From an uncultured Oscillospiraceae bacterium (GTDB taxonomy: Bacteria; Bacillota; Clostridia; Oscillospirales; Oscillospiraceae), in NCBI GenBank assembly GCA_904420435.1, contig CAJFVK010000001.1:1-59012 (forward strand): a stretch of 59,012 bases of DNA, read 5' to 3'. Numbering within the stretch: position 1 is the first letter of the stretch; each line of letters opens with the position of its first letter. The notes beneath the pieces were generated by a model. It made no database searches. It saw only the letters and a list, made by a program, of their open reading frames with translations, and was not told the DNA's origin. The translations under genes and the position numbers were made by a program. This document shows, one piece after another, positions 9,364 to 59,012 of this stretch.

Positions 9364-9386
9364 AGCGCTCCTCTGATCTGTTGGAG

Positions 9387-10256
9387 TTATCCCCGCTCCA
9401 GGGTCATCACCACCAGCTGGGCCGGGTTGAACAGGCGGAAGCTGATGCCGGAGTTGCCGATGCCCCGGGAAATGAACACCTGGGCGCCGTTGGCCTCATA
9501 GAAGCCGCTGGTGTAGGAGGGGAACAGGGTCCGCTCAGTGCTGAGCAGGCCGTCGGTAAAGGGCAGGCGGATCAATCCCCCGTGGCCGTGGCCGGAGAGG
9601 ACCAGGTCCGCCCCCAGAAGGCTGTACTGCTTTTCAAAGTAGGTGTTGCGGTGGGCCAGCAGGAGCCAGAAGACGTCCTCCCCAAAGGCGGAGCGGACCT
9701 CCGCCGCCAGCTCCTCCGGGGTTTTCTGATCCGCGTAGCCGTTGGGGTCGTCGATCCCCGCCAGGACGATCTGCTGGCCGCTTCGCTCCAGGGCCACGTA
9801 CTGGTTGCTGAGCACGGTGACCCCGGCGGCCTCCAGGCCCTCCTTCAGCTCCGGCACGCGGCCGATGCCCCACTCGTGGTTGCCGGTGATGAAGTAGGTG
9901 GGGGCGATGGCCGCCAGCTGGGCCCCCAGCTCCCAGGCGTAGGAGAAGGGGGTGTTCCGGTGCCGGTCCACGATGTCGCCGGTAATGGCGATCAGATCCG
10001 GCTCCGCCGCCTCCACCGCCTCCAGGAGGTCCTGGTTGTCCTGGCCGAACACAGCCCCGTGGAGGTCGCTGAGTTGGACGATCCGGAAGCCGTCAAAGGC
10101 CTCCGGCAGGCGGCTGCTGGTGAAGGTGTAGGACTCGGTGAACAGGATAAAGTTGCTTTGATAAAACGCGCCCGCCCCCAAAAGGAGGGCCAGGAGCAGA
10201 AGGATCAGCAGGGGCCGCCGCCACCGGCGGCGGGATTTGGAGTTGGAACGTGCCAT
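9387..10256 (-). CDS. Membrane-anchored metallophosphoesterase (YkuE-like)
   Basis: ORF frame runs to 10313. ATG at 10256 gives [12 protein letters not shown] plus a TM segment. Motifs present: DLHG, GDIVD, GNHE, GHGHGG. Confidence 0.85.
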
Positions 10257-11932: not shown

Positions 11933-13360
11933 ATGCAGACCATACCACTGATCATCGTGGCGGCGTATCTGATCGGCATGCTGCTCATCGGCTTCATTGT
12001 AGGGAAGCTCAACATCAAGGACAGCGACGACTATATGCTGGCCGGCCGGCGGATGGGCCTCTTTATGGTGGCCTTCTCCCTGTCCGCCAACAACATCGGC
12101 GGCGGGTCCACCACGGGCCTGGCCCAAAAGGCCTTCGGCGAGTGGGGCATGTCCGCCATCTGGTACGTGCTGGCGGCGTCCATCGCCATGATTCCCCTGG
12201 CCTATTTCGCCCCCAAGATCCGCAAGACCATGGCCGTCACCATTCCCGAGGTGGTGGGCCGGCGCTTCGGCAAGGGCTCCAGCACCTTCACCGCTGTGCT
12301 GGGCGTGCTGTCCCTGTTCTGCCTGACCTCCAGCCAGATCGCCGCCTCCGGCACGGTGGTGGCCACCCTCACCGGCATCCCCACCAACGTGGCGCTGGTG
12401 ATCGCGGGCCTGGTGGTGATCCTCTACACCACCTTCGGCGGCATGATCGCCGACCAGATCTCCGACCTGGTGCAGTTTGTCATCATCCTGGTGGGCCTTG
12501 CGGTGGCCACGCCCTTTGTCATCCAGGGCTGCGGCGGCTGGGAGGCCATCTCCGCCGCCCTGCCGCCGGTGCAGCTGAGCTTCACCAAGATCGGCTGGGT
12601 CACCATCATCGGCTACATCTTCAACTACTTCTGCACCTTCCTGGCGGGTCCGGAGATGGTGTCCCGGTTTGAAACCGCCAAGAGCGAGAAGACCGCCCGG
12701 AACGCCTCCTGGCTCTCCGCCATCCTCATGGCGGCCATGGCCATCTTCCCCACCCTGCTGGGCCTGGCCGCCCTGGCCATGAAGGACTCCATCCCCGGCC
12801 TGGCGGAGGACGGCGCCAACGCCATGATGGCCGTCACCAGCGCCTACGCCCCCGGCGTGATGGTGGGGCTGATCTCCGCGGCCATCATCTGCGCCACCAT
12901 GTCCTCGGCGGACTCCAACCTGCTGTGCATGTCCACCATGGTGATCAACGACCTGTACATGGGCCTGGGCGGGAAGAGGAACCTGCCGGAGAAGCGCATC
13001 ATCTTCTACACCCGGGCCTGCAACGTGGTGTTCGCCCTGGTGGCCATGGGCATCGCCATGTTCGGTGTGGACATCGTCACCATGAACACCTTCGCCTTCG
13101 GCATCCGGTGCGCCGGCCCCTTCGCCGCCTACGGCCTGGGCCTGGCGGTGCCCCGGGCCACCAAGCGCTCCGGGGTCATCTCCCTCTTTGCCGGCACCGT
13201 GGGCTTCTGCTTCTGGCAGTGGCTCAGCGGCGGGGACTTCTACTGGGGGATCCTGCCGGTGGTGTTCGGCTGCGCGGTCAGCGTGGCGGCCTTCTTCCTG
13301 GTGAACCTGATCGAGTGGCGCCGGGGCGTCCAGCCGGCCCCCTCCGCCTATCAGGACTGA
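11933..13360 (+). CDS. Sodium:solute symporter (SSS) family transporter
   Basis: ORF frame starts at 11912, with ATG at 11933 after AGAGAGGGG. The protein is polytopic with about 13 hydrophobic segments and has the PutP/PanF-like N-terminus MQTIPLIIVAAYLIGMLLIGF. Confidence 0.88.
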   Translation: MQTIPLIIVAAYLIGMLLIGFIVGKLNIKDSDDYMLAGRRMGLFMVAFSLSANNIGGGSTTGLAQKAFGEWGMSAIWYVLAASIAMIPLAYFAPKIRKTMAVTIPEVVGRRFGKGSSTFTAVLGVLSLFCLTSSQIAASGTVVATLTGIPTNVALVIAGLVVILYTTFGGMIADQISDLVQFVIILVGLAVATPFVIQGCGGWEAISAALPPVQLSFTKIGWVTIIGYIFNYFCTFLAGPEMVSRFETAKSEKTARNASWLSAILMAAMAIFPTLLGLAALAMKDSIPGLAEDGANAMMAVTSAYAPGVMVGLISAAIICATMSSADSNLLCMSTMVINDLYMGLGGKRNLPEKRIIFYTRACNVVFALVAMGIAMFGVDIVTMNTFAFGIRCAGPFAAYGLGLAVPRATKRSGVISLFAGTVGFCFWQWLSGGDFYWGILPVVFGCAVSVAAFFLVNLIEWRRGVQPAPSAYQD

Positions 13361-13436
13361 CCGGCCCGAAGGGCGCCGCCTGTCCCTGACGAAATATACG
13401 CCCCGCCCCGCGGCCTGTCCCCGGGAGCGGGCAAGG

Positions 13437-13473
13437 AAAAACCGGGAAGCCCCGCGGGGCTTCCCGGTTTTTT
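13437..13473. terminator. Bidirectional intrinsic terminator between the symporter and the anti-sigma gene
   Basis: AAAAA-CCGGGAAGCCCCGCGGGGCTTCCCGG-TTTTTT: a perfect palindrome flanked by A5 and T6. Confidence 0.85.
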
Positions 13474-13481
13474 GCGCGGAC

Positions 13482-15107
13482 TCAGTCGTCGTCCATGTCG
13501 TACTCCAGAATGACGCCGGAGGAGCCGTCGATCTTGACCTCGTACTCCCTGCCGCCGGAGCGGAACTCCACCTCGTACTCCAGGCGGCCGTCGTCGTAGT
13601 CCCGCTCCACCTTCAGGCCGGTTATGTCGGAGAGGCTGAGGCCGGCGTAGCTGAGGGCGGCGTCCCTGGCACCCTCCGCGCCGATATCCCCGGAGGACGC
13701 GGCGGCGTGGGTCTTCGCCTCGCTCTTCAGGATGGCACCGGAGGAGCCGTCGACCTCGTAGTCGTACTCCGTATCCCCCGCCCAGAACTCGATCTCGTAC
13801 TCCAGGCGGCCGTCGTCATAGTCCCGCTTGGTGGAGGTGAACGCCGCCTGGTCCGCGGACACGCCGGCGTGGCTGAGGGCCGCGCTCTTGGCCGCCTCCA
13901 GGCCGATGTCCCCGGTGGACGCGCCGCTCTCCGCGCCGTCCTGCTCGTGGTCAAAGCCGATCACCTGGCCGGTGGCGGCGTCGATCTCGTACTCATACTC
14001 GGTGCTGCCCACCCAGAACTCCACCTCGTACTCCAGGCGGCCGTCCTCGTAGTCCCGCTTGGCCCAGATGCTGGACACCTGGTCCGCGGACACGCCGGCG
14101 TGGCTGAGGGCCGCGGCCTTGGCCGCCTCGGCGCCGATATCCGCCGGGCTGAGGACGCCGCTGTCCCCCGCCCCGGCCAGGATGCCGGCCTGTCCCCGGA
14201 GCACCTGGCCGGTGTAGGCGTCGACCGCATACTCAAACTCCCCGATGGAGAGCTTCAGCTCCACCTCGTAGTGGGGGGTCCTCTCGTCCAGCTCCGCGTC
14301 CACCTCGCAGACCACCGCGGTGGTGTCCCCCACCCCGGCGTACTCCCGGGCGATCCGCTCCGCCTCGCTCCGGCCGATGGGCAGCTGCCCGGCGCCGGCG
14401 GCGGCCATCTGGCTGAGCTCCTCCACGCTGAGGGCGGACAGGTCCGAAAAGCTCAGGCTGCTGTTCACCGCCCGGATGGCCTCGATCAGGGAGGCCTTGC
14501 CCACGGACACGTTGTTCTCCTGGGCCAAACTGTTCAGGGAGGCGTCCTGGGCCACGGTCTGGCTGAGCACCGACGCGCCGGACTGGGCGTTCTGCAGGGC
14601 CAGCCCCACCTCGCTGCTGAGACTCTCCTGGAGCCGGGCCGCCCGGCCGGCGTCCGCGTCCTCCACGGAGATCAGGATGGCCGAGGAGAGGCTCTCCAGA
14701 TAGCCGTGGCGCAGGAGGCTGCCCACAATGGCGTTCACCGCCACGTTCAGGTCCGTCCCCTCCAGGGGCATATCCCGGAGGATCTCCTCCGCCTCGGCAT
14801 TCAGGGCCCGGGCGGTGAGGACCTTTTCGCTCTGGCTCACCTCCAGCTGGATGCTGGGGTTCACATCCAGGGAAACCACCGAGGCCACGGCACTCTGCTG
14901 CCGGAGATAGAACCCCAGGATGCCGCCGCCCACCAGCAGCAGCGCCAGGCAGACGGCCACCGCCATCCGGGCAAAGGGCCGCTTCTTTCTCAGGGGGATC
15001 ACCACCCCGGACCGGTCGGCGCACCGGGAGAGGATGCTCTCCAGCTGGTCCGGCGCCGCGTGCTCCACGGCCAGGGCCAGCTTCTCTTCCAGTTGGCGGT
15101 CTGTCAC
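13482..15107 (-). CDS. Anti-sigma factor with one TM segment and four tandem PepSY domains
   Basis: GTG at 15107 follows GGAAGGAGGGGA and overlaps the sigma stop (GTGA). The TM segment is MAVAVCLALLLVGGGILGFYL. The C-terminal half has four repeats of the type AKxAALSHAGVSxxQ...RDYDDGRLEYEVEF...EYEYEIDxxxGxIL. The ORF-track N-terminal extension to 15425 overlaps the sigma gene and is rejected. Confidence 0.85.
   Translation of the reverse strand: MTDRQLEEKLALAVEHAAPDQLESILSRCADRSGVVIPLRKKRPFARMAVAVCLALLLVGGGILGFYLRQQSAVASVVSLDVNPSIQLEVSQSEKVLTARALNAEAEEILRDMPLEGTDLNVAVNAIVGSLLRHGYLESLSSAILISVEDADAGRAARLQESLSSEVGLALQNAQSGASVLSQTVAQDASLNSLAQENNVSVGKASLIEAIRAVNSSLSFSDLSALSVEELSQMAAAGAGQLPIGRSEAERIAREYAGVGDTTAVVCEVDAELDERTPHYEVELKLSIGEFEYAVDAYTGQVLRGQAGILAGAGDSGVLSPADIGAEAAKAAALSHAGVSADQVSSIWAKRDYEDGRLEYEVEFWVGSTEYEYEIDAATGQVIGFDHEQDGAESGASTGDIGLEAAKSAALSHAGVSADQAAFTSTKRDYDDGRLEYEIEFWAGDTEYDYEVDGSSGAILKSEAKTHAAASSGDIGAEGARDAALSYAGLSLSDITGLKVERDYDDGRLEYEVEFRSGGREYEVKIDGSSGVILEYDMDDD
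13485..14290 (-). repeat. Intragenic tandem repeats (about 222-240 nt period) encoding the PepSY modules
   Basis: The anchor GTACTCCAGGCGGCCGTC recurs at 13575, 13797 and 14028 on the plus strand. A degenerate fourth unit lies near 14268. Confidence 0.8.
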
Positions 15108-38586: not shown

Positions 38587-38673
38587 GCCGGTGTGGTGGA
38601 ATTGGTAGACACAAGGGACTTAAAATCCCTCGGTAGCGATACCGTACCGGTTCGAGCCCGGTCACCGGCACCA
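38587..38673 (+). tRNA. tRNA-Leu (anticodon UAA), class II long variable arm, CCA encoded
   Basis: The acceptor GCCGGTG pairs with CACCGGC. The anticodon loop is CT-TAA-AA within AGGGA/TCCCT, the variable arm is CGGTAGCGATACCGT, and the T-arm is ACCGG-TTCGAGC-CCGGT. Confidence 0.93.
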
Positions 38674-38696
38674 TGGGATTTTAAGAAACCACATAT

Positions 38697-38772
38697 CGCG
38701 GCGTAGAGCAGTTGGTAGCTTGTCGGGCTCATAACCCGGAGGTCGCAGGTTCGAGTCCTGCCGCCGCAACCA
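38697..38772 (+). tRNA. Initiator tRNA-Met (anticodon CAU), CCA encoded
   Basis: The acceptor CGCGGCG/CGCCGCA gives a C1:A72 mismatch. The anticodon stem has three consecutive G:C pairs (GGG/CCC) flanking CT-CAT-AA. Both are bacterial initiator hallmarks. Confidence 0.88.
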
Positions 38773-49078: not shown

Positions 49079-49770
49079 AGCCAGTCCACCTCCTGTTCCT
49101 GGTCCTCCACGATCCTGCCGTCGGAGATGCGGATGATCCGCCGGGCCGTGGCGGCGATGGAGTTGTCGTGGGTGATGAGAATCACGGTGCTGCCCTCCTT
49201 GTTCAGCTCCTGGAGGAAGTGGAGCACCTCCTGGCCGGTGTGGCTGTCCAGGGCGCCGGTGGGCTCGTCGGCCATGATGATGGGGGGCTTGGCGGCGATG
49301 GCCCGGGCGATGGCCACCCGCTGCTGCTGGCCGCCGGACATCTCCGAGGGGTGGTGCTTCCACCGGGAGGCGATGTCCACCCGCTCCATGGCCTCCATCA
49401 CCATGTCCCGGCGCTTGAAGACGGACACGTTCTGGTAGATCAGGGGCAGCTCCACGTTCTCATAGGCGGTGAGCCCCTGGATCAGGTTGTAGCTCTGGAA
49501 GATAAACCCCACCTCCCTGTTGCGGATGTGGGAGAGCTGGGCGTCGTCCAGATCGTCCACGTCCTGCCCGTCGATCAGGTAGGTGCCCCGGGTGGGCACA
49601 TCCAGGCAGCCCAGAATGTTCATCAGGGTGGACTTGCCGGAGCCGGACTGGCCCACCACCGCCACGAACTCCCCCCGGTCGATGGTGAGGCTCACCCCGT
49701 CCAGGGCCCGGACCTCCGCCTCCGTGCCCTCTCCGTAGATCTTGTAGACGTCGCGAATATCAATCAGCAT
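49075..49770 (-). CDS. ABC transporter ATP-binding protein (MacB/LolD-like)
   Basis: 231 aa. It has Walker A GQSGSGKST, signature MSGGQQQR and Walker B IIMADEPTG. Confidence 0.93.
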   Translation of the reverse strand: MLIDIRDVYKIYGEGTEAEVRALDGVSLTIDRGEFVAVVGQSGSGKSTLMNILGCLDVPTRGTYLIDGQDVDDLDDAQLSHIRNREVGFIFQSYNLIQGLTAYENVELPLIYQNVSVFKRRDMVMEAMERVDIASRWKHHPSEMSGGQQQRVAIARAIAAKPPIIMADEPTGALDSHTGQEVLHFLQELNKEGSTVILITHDNSIAATARRIIRISDGRIVEDQEQEVDWL

Positions 49771-49787
49771 TCCATCACCTCACCTCA

Positions 49788-51452
49788 TCAATAGTACATG
49801 TTCATGTTCTGGGTGGTGTTCTGGAATACGGTGTCGCCCTCGCTGACGCCGCTGCGGATCTCAATATTATATGTATCGTTGATCCCTGTTTCCACCGGCA
49901 CGGCGTAGTAGCCCTCGGCGGGCACGCCCATGGCGCTGCCGTCGATGTCGATGGCGTTGTCCGGCCGGGCGTCCGTCTTCAGGAACACCACGCTGATGCT
50001 CTCGCCGGTTTCACTGTTGGGGTCGGTGACGTACTTGACGCACTGGATGGGCAGCACCAGGCACCCGTCGCTCTGGCTGGCCACCAGGCTATAGGTGACG
50101 GAGCTGTTGGGGTAGATGCCGCTGCCGGTCTCCGCGGCCATGGAGTTGTCCACGGAGATGGTGGCCGGGTAGAAGACGGCGCCGTTGTTGTTCTCCGCGT
50201 TGAGGCTGATGCTCTCCACAACGCCCGTGTAGGGGGTGCCCCACTGGTTGATGTCCACCATCATGCCCACCTTCACGTAGGACAGGTTCCGCTCGTCCAC
50301 CTGGGCGGTGATGGTGATGACGGAGGTGTCGGCGATGGTGATCACCGCGGTGTTGGCGTCCACCTCCTGGCCCGGGGAGATGGCAAGGCCCGACACAGTG
50401 CCGGAGATGGGCGCCACCGCCTCCAGGTTCGCCAGGTTCTTCTCCGCCTTCTCCAGGTCCTCCTGGGCGGTCTTCACGTCCTCCTCGGCGTTGTAGATGT
50501 CCGCCTCGTTGTCCTCCCCGTCGATCTGCATGAGCACATCCCCGGCGGACACGGACAGGTAGTCCAGCAGGCTGTTGCTGATCACGTCGCCGCTGGCCTT
50601 GACCACCACGTCCGCCGTGCGGCTGTACTTCAGCTCCCCCTGCTCATAGGGGTAGATGGCCTGGCCGCCGGAGGTGATGGAGGCGGAGGCCTTCATGCCC
50701 TCGGTGAGGGCGCCCTCGTTGGGAACCGAGATCTCCACCATGAAGAGCCGGCTGCCCTCGGCGGAGATCCGCTCCACCATGTTGACCCGCTCCACCGTGC
50801 CGGTGACCTGCCCCATGACCGCCGGGATGGAAACGGAAACGCTCTGCCCCTGGCGGATATCGTTTTCATAGGCGTAGCTGTAGTACTGCTCCAGGGTCAG
50901 GGTGTGGTCGTCCACCAGCTTGGCGATGGTGGTGCCGCTGGAGATGGGATCCCCCGGCTCGAAGCGGGGGCTGTCCCCCAGGAGGATCTTCCCGGAGAAG
51001 GGGGCCGTGACGGTCAGGTTGTTGGCCGCCTCATAGAGGTCGTCCAGGGCCTGCTGCTTGGCCTTCAGGGCGTCCCGGGCGTTGACCACCGCGGCCTGGG
51101 CGCCGGGGCTGTCGATGGAAAACAGCTGCTGGCCGGCCTCCACCGTCTGTCCCTCGGTGACGTACACGTCCAGCACGGTGCCCGAGGTGGTGATGGTGAT
51201 GGTCTCCTGGCTCTTGGCCTTGGCGGTGCCGGAGCCCTCCACCTTGCTGGTGATGGAGCCCAGCTGCACCATGGCGTCATTGATCGTAACGCTCCCGTCG
51301 TCGGCAGTCATCAGCTTGACCATGCCGAAGACAATGGCACCCACCACCACAAGGGCAATGACGCTGAGGATGATCCGCTTGCGGAGCTTGGGATTCTTCT
51401 TTTTCTTGGGCGCCTGTACCTCCGTGGCGGGCGGGGTGACTGTTGCATTCAT
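49788..51452 (-). CDS. Membrane-fusion (HlyD/MacA/YknX-like) periplasmic adaptor protein
   Basis: ATG at 51452 follows GGAGGAAAGGAAGG. It has an N-terminal TM anchor, lipoyl-like hairpin segments (VYVTEGQTVEAGQQLFSID, APISGTVSGLAISPGQEV) and a coiled-coil. At 554 aa it is long for the family. Confidence 0.85.
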   Translation of the reverse strand: MNATVTPPATEVQAPKKKKNPKLRKRIILSVIALVVVGAIVFGMVKLMTADDGSVTINDAMVQLGSITSKVEGSGTAKAKSQETITITTSGTVLDVYVTEGQTVEAGQQLFSIDSPGAQAAVVNARDALKAKQQALDDLYEAANNLTVTAPFSGKILLGDSPRFEPGDPISSGTTIAKLVDDHTLTLEQYYSYAYENDIRQGQSVSVSIPAVMGQVTGTVERVNMVERISAEGSRLFMVEISVPNEGALTEGMKASASITSGGQAIYPYEQGELKYSRTADVVVKASGDVISNSLLDYLSVSAGDVLMQIDGEDNEADIYNAEEDVKTAQEDLEKAEKNLANLEAVAPISGTVSGLAISPGQEVDANTAVITIADTSVITITAQVDERNLSYVKVGMMVDINQWGTPYTGVVESISLNAENNNGAVFYPATISVDNSMAAETGSGIYPNSSVTYSLVASQSDGCLVLPIQCVKYVTDPNSETGESISVVFLKTDARPDNAIDIDGSAMGVPAEGYYAVPVETGINDTYNIEIRSGVSEGDTVFQNTTQNMNMYY

Positions 51453-51505
51453 GGTTTCTTTCCTTCCTTTCCTCCGGTCCGGAAAATTCGCGTACTGTAC
51501 TGCTG

Positions 51506-51534
51506 ATAGTAATACAGTTGGCAATGCTTGTCAA
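51506..51534 (-). promoter_or_regulatory. Promoter of the MFP-ABC-FtsX-SLH operon
   Basis: On the minus strand: TTGACA (51534-51529), 17 nt, TACTAT (51511-51506). Confidence 0.6.
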
Positions 51535-51544
51535 CCTGAAAACA

Positions 51545-51562
51545 GTTACAGTTAGGTTACAG
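51545..51562. promoter_or_regulatory. Direct repeat GTTACAG-N4-GTTACAG (11-bp period) abutting the -35 of the efflux/SLH operon
   Basis: GTTACAG occurs at 51545-51551 and 51556-51562, 10 nt upstream of the -35 on the minus-strand promoter. This geometry is typical of response-regulator activator sites. Confidence 0.4.
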
Positions 51563-51764
51563 CTTTCCGGCGCTGCCGGGCGGGCGCGGCCCAGGGCCGG
51601 ACAGGAGCCATTGCCATACTAATTTTATAGACGACAGAGCGGGGCAAATGTTCCCTCTCCGCCTAAAAAAATTCTGGTCCGCGGGGGGCGGGAGCTTTTC
51701 GGCTGGTTTTTCATTTTTTTGACATGGAACAGAAAATTTTTTTAAAAATTCCCCCTTCTGCTCC

Positions 51765-51793
51765 TTGCAAAACGACACAATTTGGAGTATAGT
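51765..51793 (+). promoter_or_regulatory. Promoter of the His-rich / cooT / metF / acs operon
   Basis: TTGCAA (51765-51770), 17 nt, TATAGT (51788-51793). Confidence 0.65.
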
Positions 51794-51838
51794 GTATACG
51801 GTTAAAATTATGTCAATTCATAGATTGGAGTGACCACT

Positions 51839-52123
51839 GTGGAACACAGCCATGAACATACCCATCCCCACAGCCACGACGGCGTGGAGCACACCCATCC
51901 CCACACCCATGAGGGCCATTCCCACGGGGACGTCCAGGGGGAGGACAAGACGGCGGCCCTGCTGCAGTACATGCTGGACCACAACGTCCACCACTGCGGC
52001 GAGCTCAAGGAGATGGCCGGCGGCCTCTCCGGCGAGGCGCAGCACCAGCTGCTCCACGCGGTGGAGAGCTTCGAGGAGGCCAACGGCCATCTGGCAAAGG
52101 CCATCGAGGAACTGAAAAAGTAA
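51839..52123 (+). CDS. Histidine-rich small protein (putative metal-binding or nickel-handling protein)
   Basis: GTG at 51839 sits 8 nt after GGAG (the frame also opens at GTG 51830). The N-terminus is EHSHEHTHPHSHDGVEHTHPHTHEGHSHGD, with 12 His in about 30 residues, followed by a helical C-terminal half with further His/Cys (HNVHHC). Confidence 0.7.
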   Translation: MEHSHEHTHPHSHDGVEHTHPHTHEGHSHGDVQGEDKTAALLQYMLDHNVHHCGELKEMAGGLSGEAQHQLLHAVESFEEANGHLAKAIEELKK

Positions 52124-52136
52124 GGAGCGATTTTCC

Positions 52137-52325
52137 ATGTGTCTTTCTACGGTTTATAAAGGAAGCAAGTCTGACGACAACGTCTGCGCCAAGTATGTGG
52201 CGAAGATCGACGTGGACGGCGACACCCTCACCTTTACCGACGTGCTGGGCGAGGTGACGAAGGTGGAGGGCCGCCTGGTCAGCGCGGACCTGACCGCCGG
52301 CGTGGTGGTCTTCGACGCCGCCTGA
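52137..52325 (+). CDS. cooT: CooT-family nickel-binding protein
   Basis: 62 aa. It has the N-terminal Met-Cys (Cys2) and an all-beta pattern like R. rubrum CooT. SD is AAGGAG. Confidence 0.75.
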   Translation: MCLSTVYKGSKSDDNVCAKYVAKIDVDGDTLTFTDVLGEVTKVEGRLVSADLTAGVVVFDAA

Positions 52326-52326
52326 G

Positions 52327-52548
52327 ATGAGAGCGTACGAACTGTGCTGCGAGATCTTCAACAGCTGCAGCAACAACCAGATGCGGGACGTGGATTTCCA
52401 GGAGGTGGAGGTGGAGGACACCGACGCCTACGTCCGGAATCTGGAGCCCCGGGCCGTTATTGAGAAGGAGGTCCTCTCCGACGGCGCGGTGATTTACCAT
52501 ACGGATACCGCCGGACTGTGCAAGCGGTATTCCTTCACCCCGATCTGA
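52327..52548 (+). CDS. Hypothetical small protein (73 aa)
   Basis: ATG lies 1 nt after the cooT stop, which suggests translational coupling. The N-terminus is Cys-rich (ELCCEIFNSCSNN). No family recognised. Confidence 0.55.
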   Translation: MRAYELCCEIFNSCSNNQMRDVDFQEVEVEDTDAYVRNLEPRAVIEKEVLSDGAVIYHTDTAGLCKRYSFTPI

Positions 52549-52765
52549 CGCCGGCGCCGCCGGACGCCGGAGCGGGGCCGCCGCGCCCGGGCGCCCAGCG
52601 CCGGCCTTCGCGGCGGACGGTCGAGCCAGGCTGCCAGGGGGCCCGGGGAGGGCACGGCGGAGCGTTCCGCCGGCGTCCCGCCGGCCCGCCTGGAAATGGA
52701 TATGCTGGCTCCGGTATCGGCCGGAGTCCGCGGCAGAGAAGCGAAACAAACAAATGGAGGTTTTT

Positions 52766-53689
52766 ATGAAAGTTTCCGAGATTTTTGAGGAGCGGGCAAC
52801 ATTCTCCTTTGAGGTGTTCCCGCCCAAGACCGACGCCGGCATGGAGAAGCTGTGCGGCAAGGGCGGCGTGCTGGAGCAGCTGTACACCATGCACCCGGAC
52901 TACATCTCCTGCACCTACGGCGCCGGCGGCACCAACGTGGGCAAGAACCTGGAGGTCCTCCAGAAGATCAAGGCCGACGGCAAGTGCACCCCGGTCACCC
53001 ACTTCACCTGCATCGGCAACACCAAGGAGGGCATCAAGGAGCAGCTCCAGACCTACCTGGACAACGGCATCGACCACATCCTGGCCCTGCGGGGCGACCT
53101 GCCCTTCGGCTGGACAGGCACCAACGGCGACCTGCACTACGCCACGGAGCTGGTGAAGTTCATCCGCAAGGAGTTTGACGACAAGTTCACCATCGCCGTG
53201 GCCGGCTCCCCCGAGGGCCATGTCCAGTGCCGCAGCCTGGAGTCCGACATCTCCTTCCTCAAGCAGAAGCAGGACAACGGCGCCGACTACATCATCACCC
53301 AGCTGTGCTGGGATATGGACCAGTTCCGCTACTGGCTGGACGCCATCCGGGCCGCCGGCATCTGGCTGCCTGTGGACGTGGGCATCATGCCCATCACCAC
53401 CATCTCCGGCACCCTGACCAACGCCCTGAGCCGCAACGCCTGCGTCATGGACCGCAAGCTCTGCGAGATCATCTCCAAGTACTGGCTGTTCCCCAACCCC
53501 TACGCCCCCGAGGACGCCATGGCGGATCAGAAGAAGGCCGATTTCCGCAAGGCCGGCCTGGACTACACCATCGACCTGATCGACCAGTACCGGGCCTGCG
53601 GCATCGACGGTATCCACCTCTATGCCCTGAACAAGTACGAGGATGTGGCTTACATCGTCGAGAACTCCGGCATCATCGACCTGGTCTGA
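52766..53689 (+). CDS. metF: Methylenetetrahydrofolate reductase
   Basis: ATG at 52766 follows ATGGAGG. It has FSFEVFPPKT, LRGD and DYIITQLCWD, typical of MetF. Confidence 0.92.
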   Translation: MKVSEIFEERATFSFEVFPPKTDAGMEKLCGKGGVLEQLYTMHPDYISCTYGAGGTNVGKNLEVLQKIKADGKCTPVTHFTCIGNTKEGIKEQLQTYLDNGIDHILALRGDLPFGWTGTNGDLHYATELVKFIRKEFDDKFTIAVAGSPEGHVQCRSLESDISFLKQKQDNGADYIITQLCWDMDQFRYWLDAIRAAGIWLPVDVGIMPITTISGTLTNALSRNACVMDRKLCEIISKYWLFPNPYAPEDAMADQKKADFRKAGLDYTIDLIDQYRACGIDGIHLYALNKYEDVAYIVENSGIIDLV

Positions 53690-53758
53690 CGCAGGACCGC
53701 TCCGGGGCCTCTCCGGCCGGCGGAGCGGATCATCCCTTTGGAAGGAGCCGCAAGCACT

Positions 53759-54529
53759 ATGACACAAACCATCGCTTTCGCCGGCAAGGGCGGGGTCGGC
53801 AAGACCACCATCTGCGGGATGCTGATCCAGTACCTGTGCCGCAAGAATAAGGGCGCCGTCCTGGCTGTGGATGCGGACGCCAACTCCAACCTCAACGAGG
53901 TGCTGGGGGTGGACGTGGAGATGACTCTGGGCGACATCCGCGAGAACATCGCCCGGGCGGACATCACCGATCCCAGCCCCATCCCCGCCGGCATGACCAA
54001 GGCCGACTACGCGGACATGATGTTCGGCAACGCCCTCATCGAGGGGGACGACTTCGACATGCTGGTCATGGGCCGCACCCAGGGCAAGGGCTGCTACTGC
54101 TACGTCAACGGCATCCTCTCCGCCCAGGTGGACAAGTACGCCAAGAACTACCGCTATGTGGTGGTGGACAACGAGGCGGGCCTGGAGCACATCAGCCGGG
54201 GCATCCTGCCCAAGGTGGACATGATCCTCCTGGTCAGCGACTGCTCCCGCCGGGGCATCCAGGCGGTGGGCCGCATCGCTGAGATGATCGAGGAGCTGAA
54301 GCTGGGCGTGAAGGACGTGAAGCTCATCGTCAACCGCGCCCCCGGCGGCCAGCTCAACGACGGCGTCCGGGAGGAGATCGAGAAGCACGGCCTGGACCTG
54401 CTGGGCGTCGTGCCCCAGGACGAAACCGTCTACCAGTATGACGCCGAGGGCAAGCCCAGCGTGGACGTGCCGGAGGACGCGCCCATCAAGCAGGCGGTCC
54501 ACGGCCTCTTTGACCAGCTTCCCCTGTAA
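53759..54529 (+). CDS. cooC: CooC/AcsF-type nickel-insertion ATPase
   Basis: It has the deviant Walker A GKGGVGKTT and the CxC nickel motif GKGCYCYVN. It is a MinD/ParA-like fold of 256 aa. Confidence 0.9.
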   Translation: MTQTIAFAGKGGVGKTTICGMLIQYLCRKNKGAVLAVDADANSNLNEVLGVDVEMTLGDIRENIARADITDPSPIPAGMTKADYADMMFGNALIEGDDFDMLVMGRTQGKGCYCYVNGILSAQVDKYAKNYRYVVVDNEAGLEHISRGILPKVDMILLVSDCSRRGIQAVGRIAEMIEELKLGVKDVKLIVNRAPGGQLNDGVREEIEKHGLDLLGVVPQDETVYQYDAEGKPSVDVPEDAPIKQAVHGLFDQLPL

Positions 54530-54613
54530 GAACCGCGTGTATCTGTGAGAGCGCACCCAACTATGTTTTCTATTAATTTTCAATAGACAAATTTTTGAAG
54601 GGAGTAAACCACT

Positions 54614-55552
54614 ATGCCGTTTGCAAAGAAACCCCAGGTATTCGGCGCGTCCATCAACGCCCTGACGCTGGGCACCGGCGACAAGGCCATCACCCTGGGC
54701 GGTCAGAATGTGTACAATCTCTACACCTTCGACGCCCCCATCGCCAACCGCCCCAAGATCGGTATCGATGTGTCCGACGATCCCCAGCAGCCCTCCCCGG
54801 GCCTGGCCGCCTTCTATGAGGGCTGCACCACCCTGGCTGACCGGGCCAAGAAGGCCGCGTCCCTGGAGGATGTGGACTTTGTCTGCATCCGCTTCGATCT
54901 GGCCGACCCCAACGGCGCCGACAAGTCCATCGAGGACTGCGTGGCCGACGCCAAGGCTGTGGCCGAGGTAGTCGACAAGCCCATCGTGGTGGCCGGCTGC
55001 AAGAACACCAGCAAGGATACCGAGCTCTTCGGCAAGGTGTCCGAGGCCCTGCAGGGCAAGAACATCCTGGTCCTCTCCGCCCGCGAGGAGGACTACAAGG
55101 GCGTGGCCGCCTCCGCCGTCATGGCCTATGGCCAGAAGGTGGGCGCCGAGTCCGCCGTGGACATCAACCTGGCCAAGCAGCTCAACGTCCTCATCACCCA
55201 GATGGGCGTTGACGGCCACAACATCGCCATGAACGTGGGCAGCGCTGCCGCCGGCTACGGCTTTGAGTACGTCGTTTCCACCCTGGAGCGCGTCAAGGCC
55301 GCCGCCCTGGGCCAGAGCGACACCACCCTCCAGATGCCGATCATCACCCCCGTGGGCAACGAAACCTGGGCTGTGAAGGAGTCCACCGCTCCCGAGTCCG
55401 ACAACCCCGAGTGGGGCGATCAGGACGAGCGCGGCATCGACATGGAAGTCGAAACCGCCGCCGCCTGCCTGGCTTACGGCAGCGACGCCGTCATCCTGCG
55501 GCATCCTGAATCCATTAAGACCGTTGCGCAGCTGATTGCTGCTTTGATGTAA
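54614..55552 (+). CDS. acsD: Corrinoid iron-sulfur protein small subunit (AcsD/CdhD)
   Basis: 312 aa. It resembles the CFeSP delta/small subunit (TIM-barrel) throughout, for example VVAGCKN and AVILRHPES. Confidence 0.9.
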   Translation: MPFAKKPQVFGASINALTLGTGDKAITLGGQNVYNLYTFDAPIANRPKIGIDVSDDPQQPSPGLAAFYEGCTTLADRAKKAASLEDVDFVCIRFDLADPNGADKSIEDCVADAKAVAEVVDKPIVVAGCKNTSKDTELFGKVSEALQGKNILVLSAREEDYKGVAASAVMAYGQKVGAESAVDINLAKQLNVLITQMGVDGHNIAMNVGSAAAGYGFEYVVSTLERVKAAALGQSDTTLQMPIITPVGNETWAVKESTAPESDNPEWGDQDERGIDMEVETAAACLAYGSDAVILRHPESIKTVAQLIAALM

Positions 55553-55566
55553 GGAGGGTGTGAACC

Positions 55567-57858
55567 ATGGCACTGAAAGGTCTTGACATCTTTAAGCTGA
55601 CCCCGAAAACCAACTGTAAGGACTGCGGCAGCCCCACCTGCATGGCGTTCGCCATGAAGGTCGCCCAGGGCGCCGTTCCCATTGAGAAGTGCCCCCACAT
55701 GTCCGCTGAGGCGCTGTCCACTCTGTCCGAGGCCACCGCGCCCCCGATGAAGAGCTACAAGGTGGGCGAGCTGAGCCTGGGCGGCGAGACCGTCCTGAGC
55801 CGCCACGAGAAGACCTTCGTTTCCAAGACCCTGTATGCCGTGAGCGTCTGCGACTGCATGGACGAGGCCAAGCAGGACGAGGTCATCGCCTCCATCCCCA
55901 AGGTGGACTATGAGCGCATCAGCGAGCGGATGTATGTGGAGATGGTCTACGTCAACCACAGCGCCGACAAGAGCGCCGACGACTATGTGGCTCTGATCAA
56001 CAAGGTCAAGGGCCTGGGCCGTCCCCTGGTGCTGGGCTGCACCGACGTGGCCGTGGCCAAGGCCGCTGTGGCCGCCGCTGCCGGCTGCGACTTCATCCTC
56101 AACGGCGCCGACGAGAGCAACTACGCCGACATGAGCGCCATCGCCACCGAGGCCAAGGTGCTCCTGGGCGTCCGTGCCGCCTCCCTGGAGGCTCTCCACG
56201 ACACCGTGGAGAAGCTGGAGGCCGCCGGCAACAAGAACCTGATCCTGGATGTGGGCACCGCCTCCATCAAGGACGCCTACGCCAACGCCGTGCAGATCCG
56301 CCGGGCCGCTCTGAAGGACGGCGACCGGACCTTCGGCTATCCCTCCATCGTCAACGTGGCTGCCATCGCCGGCGGCAACGCCCACATGGAGGCCGCCCTG
56401 CTGAGCCTGTTCACCTGCAAGTACGGCTCCATCGTGGTCTGCTCCGAGATGACCTACGCCAAGGCCCTGCCTCTGTACGGCCTGCGCCAGAACATCTTCA
56501 CCGACCCCCAGAAGCCCATGAAGGTGACCCCGGGTATCTACCCCATCAACGGCGCCGACGAGAACAGCCCCTGCTGCCTGACCGTGGACTTCGCCCTGAC
56601 CTACTTCCTGGTGTCCGGCGAGCTGGAGCGCTCCAAGTGCCCGGTGAACCTGCTGATCTCCGACGCCTCCGGTATGTCCGTGCTGACCGCCTGGGCCGCC
56701 GGCAAGTTCTCCAGCTCCTCCGTGAAGAAGTTCATGGACGAGTTCGACATCGCGGGTAAGATCAAGAGCCGCGCCCTGATCATCCCCGGCAAGGTGGCCG
56801 TGATGAAGGGCGAGATCCAGGATAAGCTGCCCGAGTGGGACGTGATCGTGGCGCCCAACGAGGCGGTGCAGCTGGTGAAGTACCTGAAGGACGAGGAGTG
56901 GAAGAAGAGCCTGACCGGCAAGAGCGCCGGCGCTGGCGCCGCCGCCTCCGCTGCCGCCGCGACTGAGCCCGCCCCGGCCCCCAAGAAGGTCATCCCCGCG
57001 CCTCCCATCGTCGTCACCGGCCCCTACAAGCTGGAGGACCAGGTGGTTACTTACAAGCACCGGGATGCTTCCAGCAACCGCTTCGTGGTCATCGGCGAGC
57101 GGATCCACTGCATCTCCCCCGCCATCCGCAAGGCTATGGACAGCTACGACGAGGGCCCCATCCTGAAGCGTGCCGCCGAGCAGATCGCCGCCGGCGCCAC
57201 CTACCTGGATGTGAACATCGGGCCTGCTGAGAGCAACGGCCCCGAGCTGATGCAGTGGGCGGTTCAGCTGCTGCAGCAGAACTTCAACAACGTGCCTCTG
57301 GCCCTGGATACCGCCAACAAGGCCGCTATCGAGGCCGGCATCAAGGTCTACAACCGTGAGAACGGCAAGCCCATCGTGAACTCCGCCGACGCCGGCAGCC
57401 GGATCGACAACATCAACCTGGCCGCCGCCAACGACGCCATCGTCATCGCCCTGTGCTCCGCCGACGGTATCGCCAAGGACAACGAGGAGCGCATGATGCA
57501 CTGCCACAACATGCTGGAGCGCGGCCTTGCCCTGGGCATGGAGTCCGACGACCTGTGGTTCGACCCCCTGTTCCTGGTGGTCAAGGGTATGCAGGACAAG
57601 CAGATGGACGTGCTGAACGCCATCAAGGCCTTCTCCGACGAGGGCCTGAAGAGCACCGGCGGCCTCTCCAACAACTCCAACGGCATGCCCAAGCACATCC
57701 GTCCCATCATGGACAGCGCCCTGGTGGCCATGTGCATGATGCAGGGCCTGACCTCCGCCATCGTCAACCCCTGCGACCAGCGCCTGATGGAGACCATCAA
57801 GAGCTGCGACGTGTTCAAGAACAACATCCTGTACGCCGATTCCTACCTGGACATCTAA
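55567..57858 (+). CDS. acsC-acsE: Fusion protein: corrinoid iron-sulfur protein large subunit (AcsC/CdhE) + methyl-THF:corrinoid methyltransferase (AcsE)
   Basis: 763 aa. Residues 1 to about 445 are AcsC-like: [4Fe-4S] motif CKDCGSPTCMAFAMK...C, TIM barrel, and a C-terminal corrinoid domain ending IIPGKVAVMKGEIQD. An Ala/Pro-rich linker (about nt 56905-57080) follows. Residues about 506-763 are AcsE-like (VIGERI, LDVNIGP, LALDT, GLSNNS). Confidence 0.9.
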   Translation: MALKGLDIFKLTPKTNCKDCGSPTCMAFAMKVAQGAVPIEKCPHMSAEALSTLSEATAPPMKSYKVGELSLGGETVLSRHEKTFVSKTLYAVSVCDCMDEAKQDEVIASIPKVDYERISERMYVEMVYVNHSADKSADDYVALINKVKGLGRPLVLGCTDVAVAKAAVAAAAGCDFILNGADESNYADMSAIATEAKVLLGVRAASLEALHDTVEKLEAAGNKNLILDVGTASIKDAYANAVQIRRAALKDGDRTFGYPSIVNVAAIAGGNAHMEAALLSLFTCKYGSIVVCSEMTYAKALPLYGLRQNIFTDPQKPMKVTPGIYPINGADENSPCCLTVDFALTYFLVSGELERSKCPVNLLISDASGMSVLTAWAAGKFSSSSVKKFMDEFDIAGKIKSRALIIPGKVAVMKGEIQDKLPEWDVIVAPNEAVQLVKYLKDEEWKKSLTGKSAGAGAAASAAAATEPAPAPKKVIPAPPIVVTGPYKLEDQVVTYKHRDASSNRFVVIGERIHCISPAIRKAMDSYDEGPILKRAAEQIAAGATYLDVNIGPAESNGPELMQWAVQLLQQNFNNVPLALDTANKAAIEAGIKVYNRENGKPIVNSADAGSRIDNINLAAANDAIVIALCSADGIAKDNEERMMHCHNMLERGLALGMESDDLWFDPLFLVVKGMQDKQMDVLNAIKAFSDEGLKSTGGLSNNSNGMPKHIRPIMDSALVAMCMMQGLTSAIVNPCDQRLMETIKSCDVFKNNILYADSYLDI

Positions 57859-57887
57859 GTCGGGATCTCACCGTTCTGACAAACAAG

Positions 57888-57921
57888 AATCCCGGAGCTG
57901 CTGTGCAGCTCCGGGATTTTT
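57888..57921 (+). terminator. Terminator of the acs operon
   Basis: AATCCCGGAGCTGC-TGT-GCAGCTCCGGGATT, then TTT. Confidence 0.88.
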
Positions 57922-58122
57922 ATACCATTGAAACAGGCTGCGCCTTCCCGCCGGAAAGATTGGGGCCCGCGGCAGCGCACGAACCGGCCGACAAAGGCGG
58001 CTGGTTCCCCCGTTTGCACGCCGGGAAGTGGTTTCGTCCACGCCGCAGCGGCTGTGCCGCGAGGAAGGCGCTGTTTTACCGCCGCCTGGGGCGCGAACGC
58101 TGCGAAACTTGTTCGGCAGATG

Positions 58123-58167
58123 GAAAAGGTCCCCGGAAACCGCACAGCGGTTTCCGGGGACCTTTTC
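58123..58167. terminator. 21-bp-stem hairpin downstream of the homocysteine methyltransferase gene
   Basis: GAAAAGGTCCCCGGAAACCGC-ACA-GCGGTTTCCGGGGACCTTTTC. Confidence 0.65.
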
Positions 58168-58235
58168 TCAAATGCGCCCTGCAAATGGCGGCCCGGCGGA
58201 ACCCCCCGGCGCCGCCGGCGGAAGCGGCGGCGCTA

Positions 58236-59012
58236 CTACTTGCCCACCTTCTGGCAGAAGTAGCCGGACAGGAAGTCCCCGCTGCCCGGCCGCTCCTGGC
58301 CGGCCTGCCGTGTCAGCCGGCTGACCCACTCCATGATCAGCCGCATGTGCCGGTCGTCCGTGCCGCAGCAGCCGCCGTAGAACTTCAGGGGGAAGGCCTG
58401 GTGGAGCCGCTGGAGGGCGGAGAGGAGCTCCGTGGGGGAGCTGGGGTGGAGGCTGGCCCCGGCGGCAATCTGGGACGGGCTCAGCCGGGAGGTGTTGGCG
58501 TAGGTGCCCCGCAGGCGGGCGCGGACGGTTTCCGTCTGGTTGAAGGGCTGCTCCAGCCCCTCCCACAGGTTGTCCGGGTGGATGCAGCTGCACTGGTAGA
58601 AGAGGGGCGGCCGGTCCGGCACCGTGGCGTCGATCCGGGTGATGGCGTCGTGGATGGTTGTGCCGTCCAGCAGATGGCCGGTGTGGTCGCACATGAGGTT
58701 GATCCAGTAGGGGATGCCCGTTTCCGACAGGGCTGCCGCCATGCCCCGGGCCTCGTTGACCTCCGGCATGATCCCGGCCACCAGCACGTCCGCCCCGGTT
58801 TTGGCGAAGGCCTGGGCCTGATGGCGGTGAAACTCCGCCGCCTCCTCGAAGGGAAGGGCCTCCCCGGGGTTGTAGGCGTCCCCCTTGCAGCCCAGGAGCG
58901 CCCCGATGTAGAGGGGCTGGCTCCGCCCCTTGGCCAGCTGCCGCAGGAAGTCCATGTTGTCCTCCAGCACCGGGCGGCCGGCGAAGGGGGAGGCGGCGAT
59001 GCTCTCAAAGGT
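58236..59012 (-). CDS. Homocysteine S-methyltransferase-domain protein (N-terminus outside the window)
   Basis: The frame is open to the window edge. It has the C-terminal zinc motif YGGCCGT plus an upstream Cys (QCSCIHP), and blocks FAKTGADVLVAGIMP typical of the Hcy-binding domain of MetH/MmuM/BHMT. Confidence 0.85.
   Translation of the reverse strand, partial: TFESIAASPFAGRPVLEDNMDFLRQLAKGRSQPLYIGALLGCKGDAYNPGEALPFEEAAEFHRHQAQAFAKTGADVLVAGIMPEVNEARGMAAALSETGIPYWINLMCDHTGHLLDGTTIHDAITRIDATVPDRPPLFYQCSCIHPDNLWEGLEQPFNQTETVRARLRGTYANTSRLSPSQIAAGASLHPSSPTELLSALQRLHQAFPLKFYGGCCGTDDRHMRLIMEWVSRLTRQAGQERPGSGDFLSGYFCQKVGK

Follow-up and report, generated by a model that had tools for sequence, protein, structure and literature searches.

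A fused acsC-acsE gene in the acs cluster of gut Oscillospiraceae is predicted to specify a single-chain corrinoid protein and methyltransferase

The 59,012-nucleotide (nt) stretch of DNA analyzed in this study (hereafter, the window), which derives from an uncultured Oscillospiraceae bacterium (GenBank assembly GCA_904420435.1, contig CAJFVK010000001.1), harbors at positions 55567 to 57858 (+), coordinates that include the stop codon, an open reading frame (ORF) that runs from ATG to TAA and specifies 763 amino acids (aa) with zero internal stops. The product of this ORF, here termed acsCE, is predicted to comprise a complete AcsC, the corrinoid iron-sulfur protein (CFeSP) large subunit, followed by a linker and a complete AcsE, the methyltetrahydrofolate (methyl-THF):corrinoid methyltransferase (MeTr). 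A first-pass annotation of this DNA had proposed such a single polypeptide, in place of the two proteins of the model acetogens, and both parts of that statement are upheld: Pfam and NCBIfam searches returned both halves above their cutoffs, and acsC and acsE are separate not only in the model acetogens but also in Blautia sp. Marseille-P3201T and “Candidatus Limivivens.”

The N-terminal [4Fe-4S] domain (residues 13 to 44, positions 55603 to 55698 [+]; PF04060 FeS, 54 bits) contains the motif Cys17-x2-Cys20-x4-Cys25-x16-Cys42 and is followed by the AcsC TIM barrel and C-terminal corrinoid (B12) domain (residues 70 to 443, positions 55774 to 56895 [+]; PF03599, 261 bits), by an inter-domain linker delimited by low conservation, predicted disorder, and in-frame lengths (residues 444 to 503, positions 56896 to 57075 [+]), and by the AcsE barrel (residues 504 to 763, positions 57076 to 57855 [+]). 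The corresponding Pfam matches span residues 13 to 44 (FeS), 70 to 439 (CdhD), and 532 to 734 (Pterin_bind, PF00809, 74 bits). The AcsC half (residues 1 to 443) covers positions 1 to 446 of the 450-position profile NF003195 (PRK04165, AcsC/CdhE gamma) with 501 bits (cutoff of 306), and its residues 1 to 442 align end to end with residues 1 to 446 of 9fzy_F, a CFeSP large subunit (E 2e-144), while 2h9a/2ycl and 4djd represent further CFeSP structure matches. The four cysteines (C17, C20, C25, and C42) are invariant across a 52-sequence alignment of homologs, as is a block at residues 339 to 381, and the corrinoid-binding domain is, as judged from its sequence, present and intact. The AcsE half covers positions 2 to 261 of the 261-position profile NF040758 (CODH/ACS methyltransferase, CODH being carbon monoxide dehydrogenase and ACS acetyl-CoA synthase) with 468.5 bits (cutoff of 370), and its residues 507 to 761 match the MeTr structures 1f6y and 4djd (Moorella MeTr 1f6y/2e7f, E 1e-35). 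Residues identical to Moorella D75, N96, D160, and N199, the equivalents being numbered by manual count on the 1f6y/2e7f alignment, are present within the motifs LDTAN, VNSAD, FDPL, and GLSN. AcsE is here found not as a stand-alone protein of approximately 260 aa but as the C-terminal domain of the 763-aa chain, and no chain spanning the AcsC and AcsE halves was present among the PDB sequence matches.

One sequence alone is weak evidence for a fusion, and the comparative data are decisive in this regard. A 180-nt spacer of such composition is expected to stay stop-free and in frame by chance with a probability of approximately 7 to 11%, the acsC and acsE genes of the nearest split relatives share a frame at a distance of 51 to 201 nt, and one assembly (L087) carries a broken copy, all of which would suit an assembly or sequencing artifact in which a lost stop or a frameshift within the GC-rich spacer has merged two genes. 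When one genome per species was scanned, at least 589 related loci emerged, and the best 80 of these were assessed for a continuous ORF, by which fusion was scored locus by locus; a match over query residues 1 to 763 was also seen in the split locus L076, which has two ORFs. Among these 80 loci, 76 (two of which run off a contig end) are fused and 4 are split. Across all loci fetched, 87 distinct fused linkers, originating from many independent assemblies, fall into 11 lengths of 123 to 186 nt, every one of which is a multiple of three, with zero stops. The best 120 database matches, drawn from NCBI, ENA, JGI, and Logan assemblies, are full-length proteins of 757 to 766 aa with three domains each, and the identical protein is encoded by an independent ENA contig (P0001), while locus L101 carries a copy identical at 761 of 763 residues. 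GC content at third codon positions (GC3) is 0.93 over the whole ORF and 0.86, i.e., coding-like, over the linker. The probability that the fusion is such an artifact is, in our estimation, negligible. The continuity of the frame asserted by the first-pass annotation is, accordingly, borne out by the 76 fused loci and the 87 in-frame linkers, and the reading frame across the fusion can be taken, on these comparisons, to be under selection.

In L087 (7119 to 9211), the fused gene is called as two ORFs of 616 and 84 aa, probably as the result of an assembly error or frameshift; the break is located near the C terminus, away from the junction. Two long antisense ORFs, at 55474 to 57696 (-; 740 aa) and 52535 to 55573 (-; 1,012 aa), were rejected as genes, being regarded as shadow frames of high-GC DNA because their GC content at first codon positions is approximately 0.9 and neither has a Pfam match.

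The linker comprises approximately 60 residues rich in Ala, Pro, Lys, and Glu, and consists of a disordered Ala/Pro-rich part followed by a semi-conserved segment, within which a short beta hairpin is predicted. The peptide quoted for it in the first-pass annotation, GKSAGAGAAASAAAATEPAPAPKKVIPAPP, corresponds to residues 451 to 480; the nucleotides assigned to it there (56905 to 57080) span the whole inter-domain stretch (residues 447 to 505), and the position from which AcsE was said to begin (57082) corresponds to residue 506 (F in FVVIGERIHC), the point at which unfused AcsE proteins start; the positions given there are accurate. In the split relatives, AcsC terminates in “...VQLVKFLKDMQG*” and AcsE commences with “MAKFVTIGERIHCI,” and residues 444 to 503 (approximately) are, therefore, considered extra sequence, as the ends of the separate proteins exclude this segment. 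Mean column conservation is 0.40 to 0.58 in the linker versus 0.8 to 0.98 in the domains, and linkers of the fused proteins range from 40 to 61 aa (22% A, 12% K, 10% E, and 9% P) and form about three lineage-specific flavors. In an AlphaFold2 model of the fused protein, the domains are confidently predicted, and the predicted local distance difference test score (pLDDT) is approximately 90 or above for the barrel, 75 to 86 for the B12 domain, and below 50 for residues 454 to 474, with the hairpin near residues 488 to 493. The low pLDDT of residues 454 to 474, coupled with a predicted template modeling score (pTM) of 0.48, suggests two modules that hold no fixed pose with respect to each other. 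The junction DNA contains zero stops, zero ATG codons, and no long homopolymer. An internal start for a separate AcsE was considered at positions 57031 to 57045, where GGAGG is followed after five nucleotides by an in-frame GTG, and was rejected, this arrangement being present in only 4 of the 87 distinct linkers (those of the window, L101, L001, and L059); it is probably a by-product of Leu-Glu-Asp codons.

The fused loci belong overwhelmingly to gut Oscillospiraceae, including Faecousia, “Candidatus Pelethomonas,” “Candidatus Avoscillospira,” CAG:1024, and CAG:110, and the fusion is, by this distribution, the standard architecture of a large clade of these bacteria. Clustering at 50% identity collapses the whole fused family to a single representative (P0121), and nearly all other matches are ordinary AcsC (approximately 445 aa) or AcsE (approximately 260 aa) proteins. 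Split genes were scored in four loci, namely L048, L070, L074 (“Candidatus Limivivens”), and L076 (Blautia sp. Marseille-P3201T), and in neighbor-joining trees these form the sister group of a clade that unites all fused sequences, with bootstrap values of 82% for AcsC and 89% for AcsC and AcsE combined. This topology fits one fusion event at the base of the gut Oscillospiraceae clade, presumably tied to a rearrangement of the cluster: acsA and acsB leave the gap between cooC and acsD, acsB moves downstream, and the cargo of the resulting spacer is variable. The combination of fusion and rearrangement would, thus, provide a datable marker of pathway reorganization in gut Clostridia.

A second fusion was found in Thermodesulfobacterium-type organisms, where it is represented by approximately 26 clusters of 776 to 823 aa (P0134 and P0419 to P0444) that share approximately 34% identity with the window protein. 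It is considered an independent event because it groups with its nearest relatives, which are unfused AcsC proteins of other phyla. The gene cluster in which it resides reads fhs-folD-CODH-DUF5981-metF-acsD-acsB-acsCE (acsCE at 9001 to 11331 in L103).

In the window, acsCE is the last gene of a conserved operon. Immediately upstream lies acsD (54614 to 55552 [+]; 312 aa; NF040759 WLP_AcsD, 458.6 bits, cutoff of 430), which encodes the CFeSP small subunit, whose stop is located 14 nt before the start of the fused gene, and which is adjacent to it in every locus with an upstream flank. It is preceded by a gene for a CooC/AcsF-type P-loop NTPase of 263 aa (53738 to 54529 [+]; PF01656 CbiA and AAA_31), a putative nickel-insertion factor found directly 5′ of acsD in nearly all loci, its putative AcsF role being suggested by this position, and by metF, encoding a methylenetetrahydrofolate reductase of 311 aa (52754 to 53689 [+]; PF02219, 221 bits), which is syntenic in most related loci. 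The operon begins with a small His-rich DUF8180 protein gene (51830 to 52123 [+]; called in L101 as the equivalent of window positions 51806 to 52123), which was assigned through PF26551 in the orthologs of L081, L083, L086, and L101 and was found by tblastn 5′ of metF in many loci. Next come a gene for a 62-aa CooT-like nickel chaperone (52137 to 52325 [+]), assigned by a 99% DNA alignment to the L101 gene at 2657 to 2845 (PF10133 CooT) and also present in L081, L083, and L086, and a conserved 73-aa ORF between cooT and metF (52327 to 52548 [+]), which has no Pfam or NCBIfam match and a same-position, same-length counterpart in L081, L083, L086, L101, and L102. These three small genes (51830 to 52548 [+]) look like a nickel-handling set that accompanies the acs operon throughout the clade, and the presence of CooT together with the CooC-type NTPase implies a nickel enzyme partner. 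In the mouse-gut subclade L083 to L085, a 285-aa ORF without Pfam or NCBIfam matches is inserted between cooC and acsD (8122 to 8979 [+]), and gaps of approximately 1 kb separate these two genes in several other loci.

Downstream of acsCE, a GC-rich hairpin with a 14-bp stem, followed by a T-run on the forward strand (57888 to 57918 or, when delimited more widely, to 57922; …AATCCCGGAGCTGCTGTGCAGCTCCGGGATTTTTAT…), was identified by reading of the sequence and a stem scan; it is terminator-like and putatively ends the operon in the window species. An Rfam gathering scan of the whole window returned two adjacent tRNA genes only (38587 to 38769 [+]). Homology of the window to L081 ends at position 57856, and the tail from 57859 to 59012 has no similarity to loci L001 to L082 or to the remainder of the window, being accounted for by L101.

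No homologs of acsB, acsA, RACo, fhs, or folD were found in the 59-kb window. The first-pass annotation, because the window ends before acsB, proposed an autonomous methyl-THF-to-corrinoid loader. On such a model, the fused protein and AcsD would operate in a genome lacking acsB and feed an acceptor other than ACS, for which the terminator-like hairpin and convergent unrelated gene 3′ of acsCE, as well as a related subclade without acsB within 10 kb downstream, could also be invoked. This proposal did not stand. Locus L101, which is of the same species as the window (99.3 to 99.5% DNA identity over window positions 49514 to 59012, with the same gene order), contradicts it for the window species: the 763-aa acsCE is followed, 378 nt on, by a homocysteine (Hcy) methyltransferase gene, and then by acsB, RACo, DUF3786, an ECF S-component gene, and folC. 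By alignment, acsB (709 aa; NF040764, 1,018 bits, cutoff of 800) starts approximately 470 nt past the window end, and the window species, thus, possesses acsB, RACo, and DUF3786 (on L101) in addition to metF (in the window). The genes fhs-fchA-folD were not seen within the 23.7 kb of L101, while they are present after the cluster in the close relatives L086 and L102. Across the fused loci, acsB is located within the fetched flank in 47 of 76, usually directly downstream of acsCE and followed by RACo-DUF3786 and often by fhs-fchA-folD, and a correlation of the fusion with loss of acsB, for which the first-pass annotation had suggested a survey, is thereby rejected. The CooT and CooC-type nickel genes would, moreover, make little sense without a nickel enzyme, and the independent Thermodesulfobacterium-type fusion has acsB immediately upstream. 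We therefore regard an acsB-independent loader as extremely unlikely.

In the acsB-distal subclade (L005 to L016 and L083 to L085), the operon ends against an arabinose operon. Mouse-gut contigs L096 to L100 carry a lone acsB between citrate synthase and amidase genes (8001 to 10130 in L096), far from other acs genes. This stand-alone acsB is at a matching identity level, and the sample accessions of L083 to L085 and L096 to L100 do not coincide; the data suggest that acsB was relocated rather than lost in this subclade, although the lone acsB is not placed in the same genomes. Two acsB paralogs, at approximately 900 to 3400 and 12400 to 14600, were observed in L029, L031, L033, and L036, the acsA-adjacent upstream copy being 62 to 63% and the copy downstream of acsCE 59 to 60% identical to Blautia AcsB. 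One or two acsB copies have been reported in such genomes (PMC11773752).

The region between acsCE and acsB merits separate consideration. The gene for a protein with an Hcy S-methyltransferase domain (58236 to 59012 [-]; PF02574, 83 bits, profile positions 76 to 282) is convergent to acsCE and cut by the window end, while its full-length counterpart on L101 encodes 336 aa (8756 to 9766 [-]). MetH combines a pterin barrel, a B12 domain, and an Hcy barrel in its chemistry. By analogy, the Hcy protein could draw its methyl group from the corrinoid carried by methylated CFeSP, such that it would form, jointly with AcsE and AcsC/AcsD, a split, MetH-like methionine synthase operating besides the feeding of ACS. 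The position of the gene, 378 nt downstream of acsCE, would suit such a branch, as would its weak score (50 bits, cutoff of 215) against the curated Hcy methyltransferase equivalogs, which places it far below the S-adenosylmethionine/S-methylmethionine- or betaine-dependent enzymes. The gene is, however, convergent, with hairpins between it and acsCE, and it occupies this position in the window species only (the window and L101), tblastn having returned no match in loci L001 to L080. The spacer, furthermore, contains unrelated cargo in other species, namely Lar_restr_allev in L086 (9212 to 10000) and PadR with DUF2812 in L102 (7380 to 10000), as opposed to the Hcy gene in L101 (8379 to 10000), while in L081 (12290 to 13432) a stretch of approximately 900 nt is self-complementary, with a 73% match to its reverse complement. 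The difference in cargo between species suggests an insertion hot spot and speaks against a functional link, and the Hcy methyltransferase gene is most simply explained as an insertion; a methionine branch drawing on the same corrinoid carrier, in addition to the role proposed below, strikes us as very unlikely.

The bacterial CoFeSP requires a dedicated MeTr, and its B12 domain, formed by residues 326 to 446 of the large subunit, rotates to its partners (bioRxiv 10.1101/2024.08.05.606187, PMC13370988); these partners are MeTr, RACo, and the A-cluster of ACS (Kung et al. 2012, as cited there). It is, in our view, probable that acsCE encodes a natural single-chain AcsC-AcsE which, together with AcsD, acts as the methyl-carrier module of an otherwise ordinary Wood-Ljungdahl (CODH/ACS) pathway. 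In this pathway, the methyl group of methyl-THF, supplied via MetF, would be transferred by the AcsE barrel to Co(I) on the B12 domain of AcsC and from there to the A-cluster of AcsB, yielding acetyl-CoA, and the same route could run in reverse. The MeTr barrel would hang from the C terminus of the mobile B12 domain by a disordered tether of approximately 60 residues, which probably fixes AcsE and AcsC at a 1:1 ratio. Such a tether, which the first-pass annotation had reasonably read as joining the methyl donor enzyme to its corrinoid acceptor, would raise the local concentration of donor and acceptor and keep the barrel within reach of the B12 domain, while being sufficiently long and disordered for this domain still to reach, by swinging, both ACS and RACo, the reductive activator. 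If the AcsE domains dimerize in the manner of free MeTr, an (AcsCE)2(AcsD)2 assembly would result; this stoichiometry, any kinetic or assembly benefit, and the direction of physiological flux are matters of inference.

Several points weigh against this reading or parts thereof. An intact 83-kDa chain in cells is a prediction from the gene, as is faster methyl transfer through the tether, and the alignment underlying the AlphaFold model is shallow over the AcsE half. Support for a single origin of the fusion is moderate, the bootstrap value for the fused clade being 48% when the AcsE region alone is considered, and acsB was not found within 10 kb in the subclade formed by L005 to L016 and L083 to L085. 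With regard to completeness, a CODH gene (acsA/cooS) was matched neither in the window nor in L101 nor in close relatives; among the fused loci, acsA is near the cluster in L031, L033, and L036 only, while it is also present in split and Thermodesulfobacterium-type loci. A complete pathway in the window organism, as well as its direction, is, consequently, putative.

The lack of a nearby CODH gene in the clade of the window could alternatively indicate that the cluster serves chiefly to provide methyl-THF, through cleavage of acetyl-CoA or exchange of C1 units, instead of fixing CO2, with the fusion favoring transfer from corrinoid to THF. Genes for folate uptake and polyglutamylation (the ECF S-component and folC) 3′ of the cluster in L081, L086, and L101 are in keeping with such a physiology, and an incomplete Wood-Ljungdahl pathway is used in a reverse-type manner in Dehalococcoides. 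AcsB nevertheless retains the CODH-interaction domain at its N terminus (PF18537), acsA and a second acsB are located approximately 9 kb upstream in close fused relatives, and the methyl branch is completed by fhs-fchA-folD in many fused loci. Uncultured Oscillospiraceae with acsB are, in addition, treated as putative acetogens (PMC11773752, PMC12449052), and flux direction is not readable from sequence. A predominantly reverse operation is, on balance, deemed unlikely, and the single-chain methyl carrier of an ordinary pathway is retained as the favored interpretation.

Two independent origins suggest a real benefit of the fusion. On this basis, the tether may be adaptive and have been selected at least twice independently, giving rise to a permanent (AcsCE)2(AcsD)2 machine in which a doubly anchored B12 domain moves back and forth between ACS and the MeTr barrel of its own chain, a proposal that we advance tentatively and place somewhat short of even odds. 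Should it hold, the gut clade would offer a natural single-chain system in which to trap and image the methyl hand-off, and annotation-based surveys that read one label per protein would record too few acsE genes in abundant gut Oscillospiraceae and, as a result, underrate their acetogenic potential. As a natural 1:1 covalent CFeSP-MeTr, the fused protein would, in any case, be convenient for structural and kinetic study of the “juggling” of the B12 domain between MeTr, ACS, and RACo.

Database labels name only one half of the fused proteins, being either “acetyl-CoA decarbonylase/synthase complex subunit gamma” or “Methionine synthase I.” The latter is a misnomer in view of the domain content and the CODH/ACS context; P0428 and relatives, which are Thermodesulfobacterium-type fusions, carry it in both NCBI and UniRef. 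Given such half-names, gene-by-gene scoring may miss acsE or acsC in gut Oscillospiraceae, in what would be hundreds of species, and thereby misjudge the Wood-Ljungdahl capacity of these bacteria. In papers on acetogenic Oscillospiraceae of the ruminant gut, acsC and acsE are listed as two genes (PMC11773752, PMC12449052), and full-text searches found no description of an AcsC-AcsE fusion in the literature. The first-pass annotation had allowed that the fusion might prove to be a common and catalogued architecture: it is common in the clade, but is catalogued implicitly only, under the half-names. The fusion is a real variant of a known system, undescribed in the literature searched, that is widespread in one clade and recurrent; it joins neighboring partners of one pathway and involves no new pathway or chemistry.

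When compared with the CFeSP and MeTr of Moorella thermoacetica, Carboxydothermus hydrogenoformans, and Clostridium autoethanogenum (4djd/4dje/4djf, 2ycl, 2h9a, and 9fzy), the fused protein displays the same domains, ordered alike within each component, and, as in the Moorella-type system, AcsD is encoded next door and RACo and AcsB are encoded in the same species. The difference lies in covalency: Moorella-type AcsC (approximately 445 aa) and AcsE (approximately 262 aa) are separate chains that associate non-covalently, whereas here they form one chain with a linker of approximately 60 residues. The fused AcsE half is distant from Moorella MeTr, as the E value given above indicates, whereas it is 82 to 84% identical to the AcsE of the split loci, including that of Blautia. 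These split Lachnospiraceae (L076, L074, L048, and L070) represent the closest unfused systems, with AcsC identities of 65 to 67%; they possess two ORFs (448 to 452 aa and 261 aa) with spacers of 51 to 201 nt, and share the neighbors metF-cooC...acsD-acsC-acsE-RACo-DUF3786-fhs-fchA-folD with the fused lineage. They differ from it in that acsA-cooC2-acsB is positioned between cooC and acsD, whereas in the fused lineage acsB is downstream of acsCE and acsA is outside the core. The Thermodesulfobacterium-type fusion presents the same FeS-CdhD-Pterin_bind chain within a complete CODH/ACS cluster, with a gene order (acsD-acsB-acsCE) that differs from that of the window.

In MetH, likewise, a single polypeptide with flexible linkers combines a pterin barrel with a mobile corrinoid domain, and the AcsE half matches the MetH folate domains (1q7m, E 1e-22; TIGR02082, 87 bits). 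Identity of the fused protein with MetH was nonetheless rejected, as the TIGR02082 score, which reflects the folate domain only, compares with a cutoff of 1,011 bits and there were zero matches to PF02574, PF02310, or PF02607. Unlike MetH, the fused protein lacks an Hcy barrel, a MetH-type B12 cap/Rossmann domain, and activation domains, and its corrinoid domain is of the CdhD/CFeSP type, paired with a [4Fe-4S] domain and AcsD. The archaeal CoFeSP (CdhDE) of the acetyl-CoA decarbonylase/synthase complex, finally, needs no separate methyltransferase to pass the methyl group from pterin to corrinoid (PMC13370988), and thus offers a functional analogy of self-sufficiency; in archaea, this activity is said to reside in CdhDE, without an AcsE-type barrel, whereas in the gut Oscillospiraceae a canonical bacterial AcsE barrel has been appended to the corrinoid protein.

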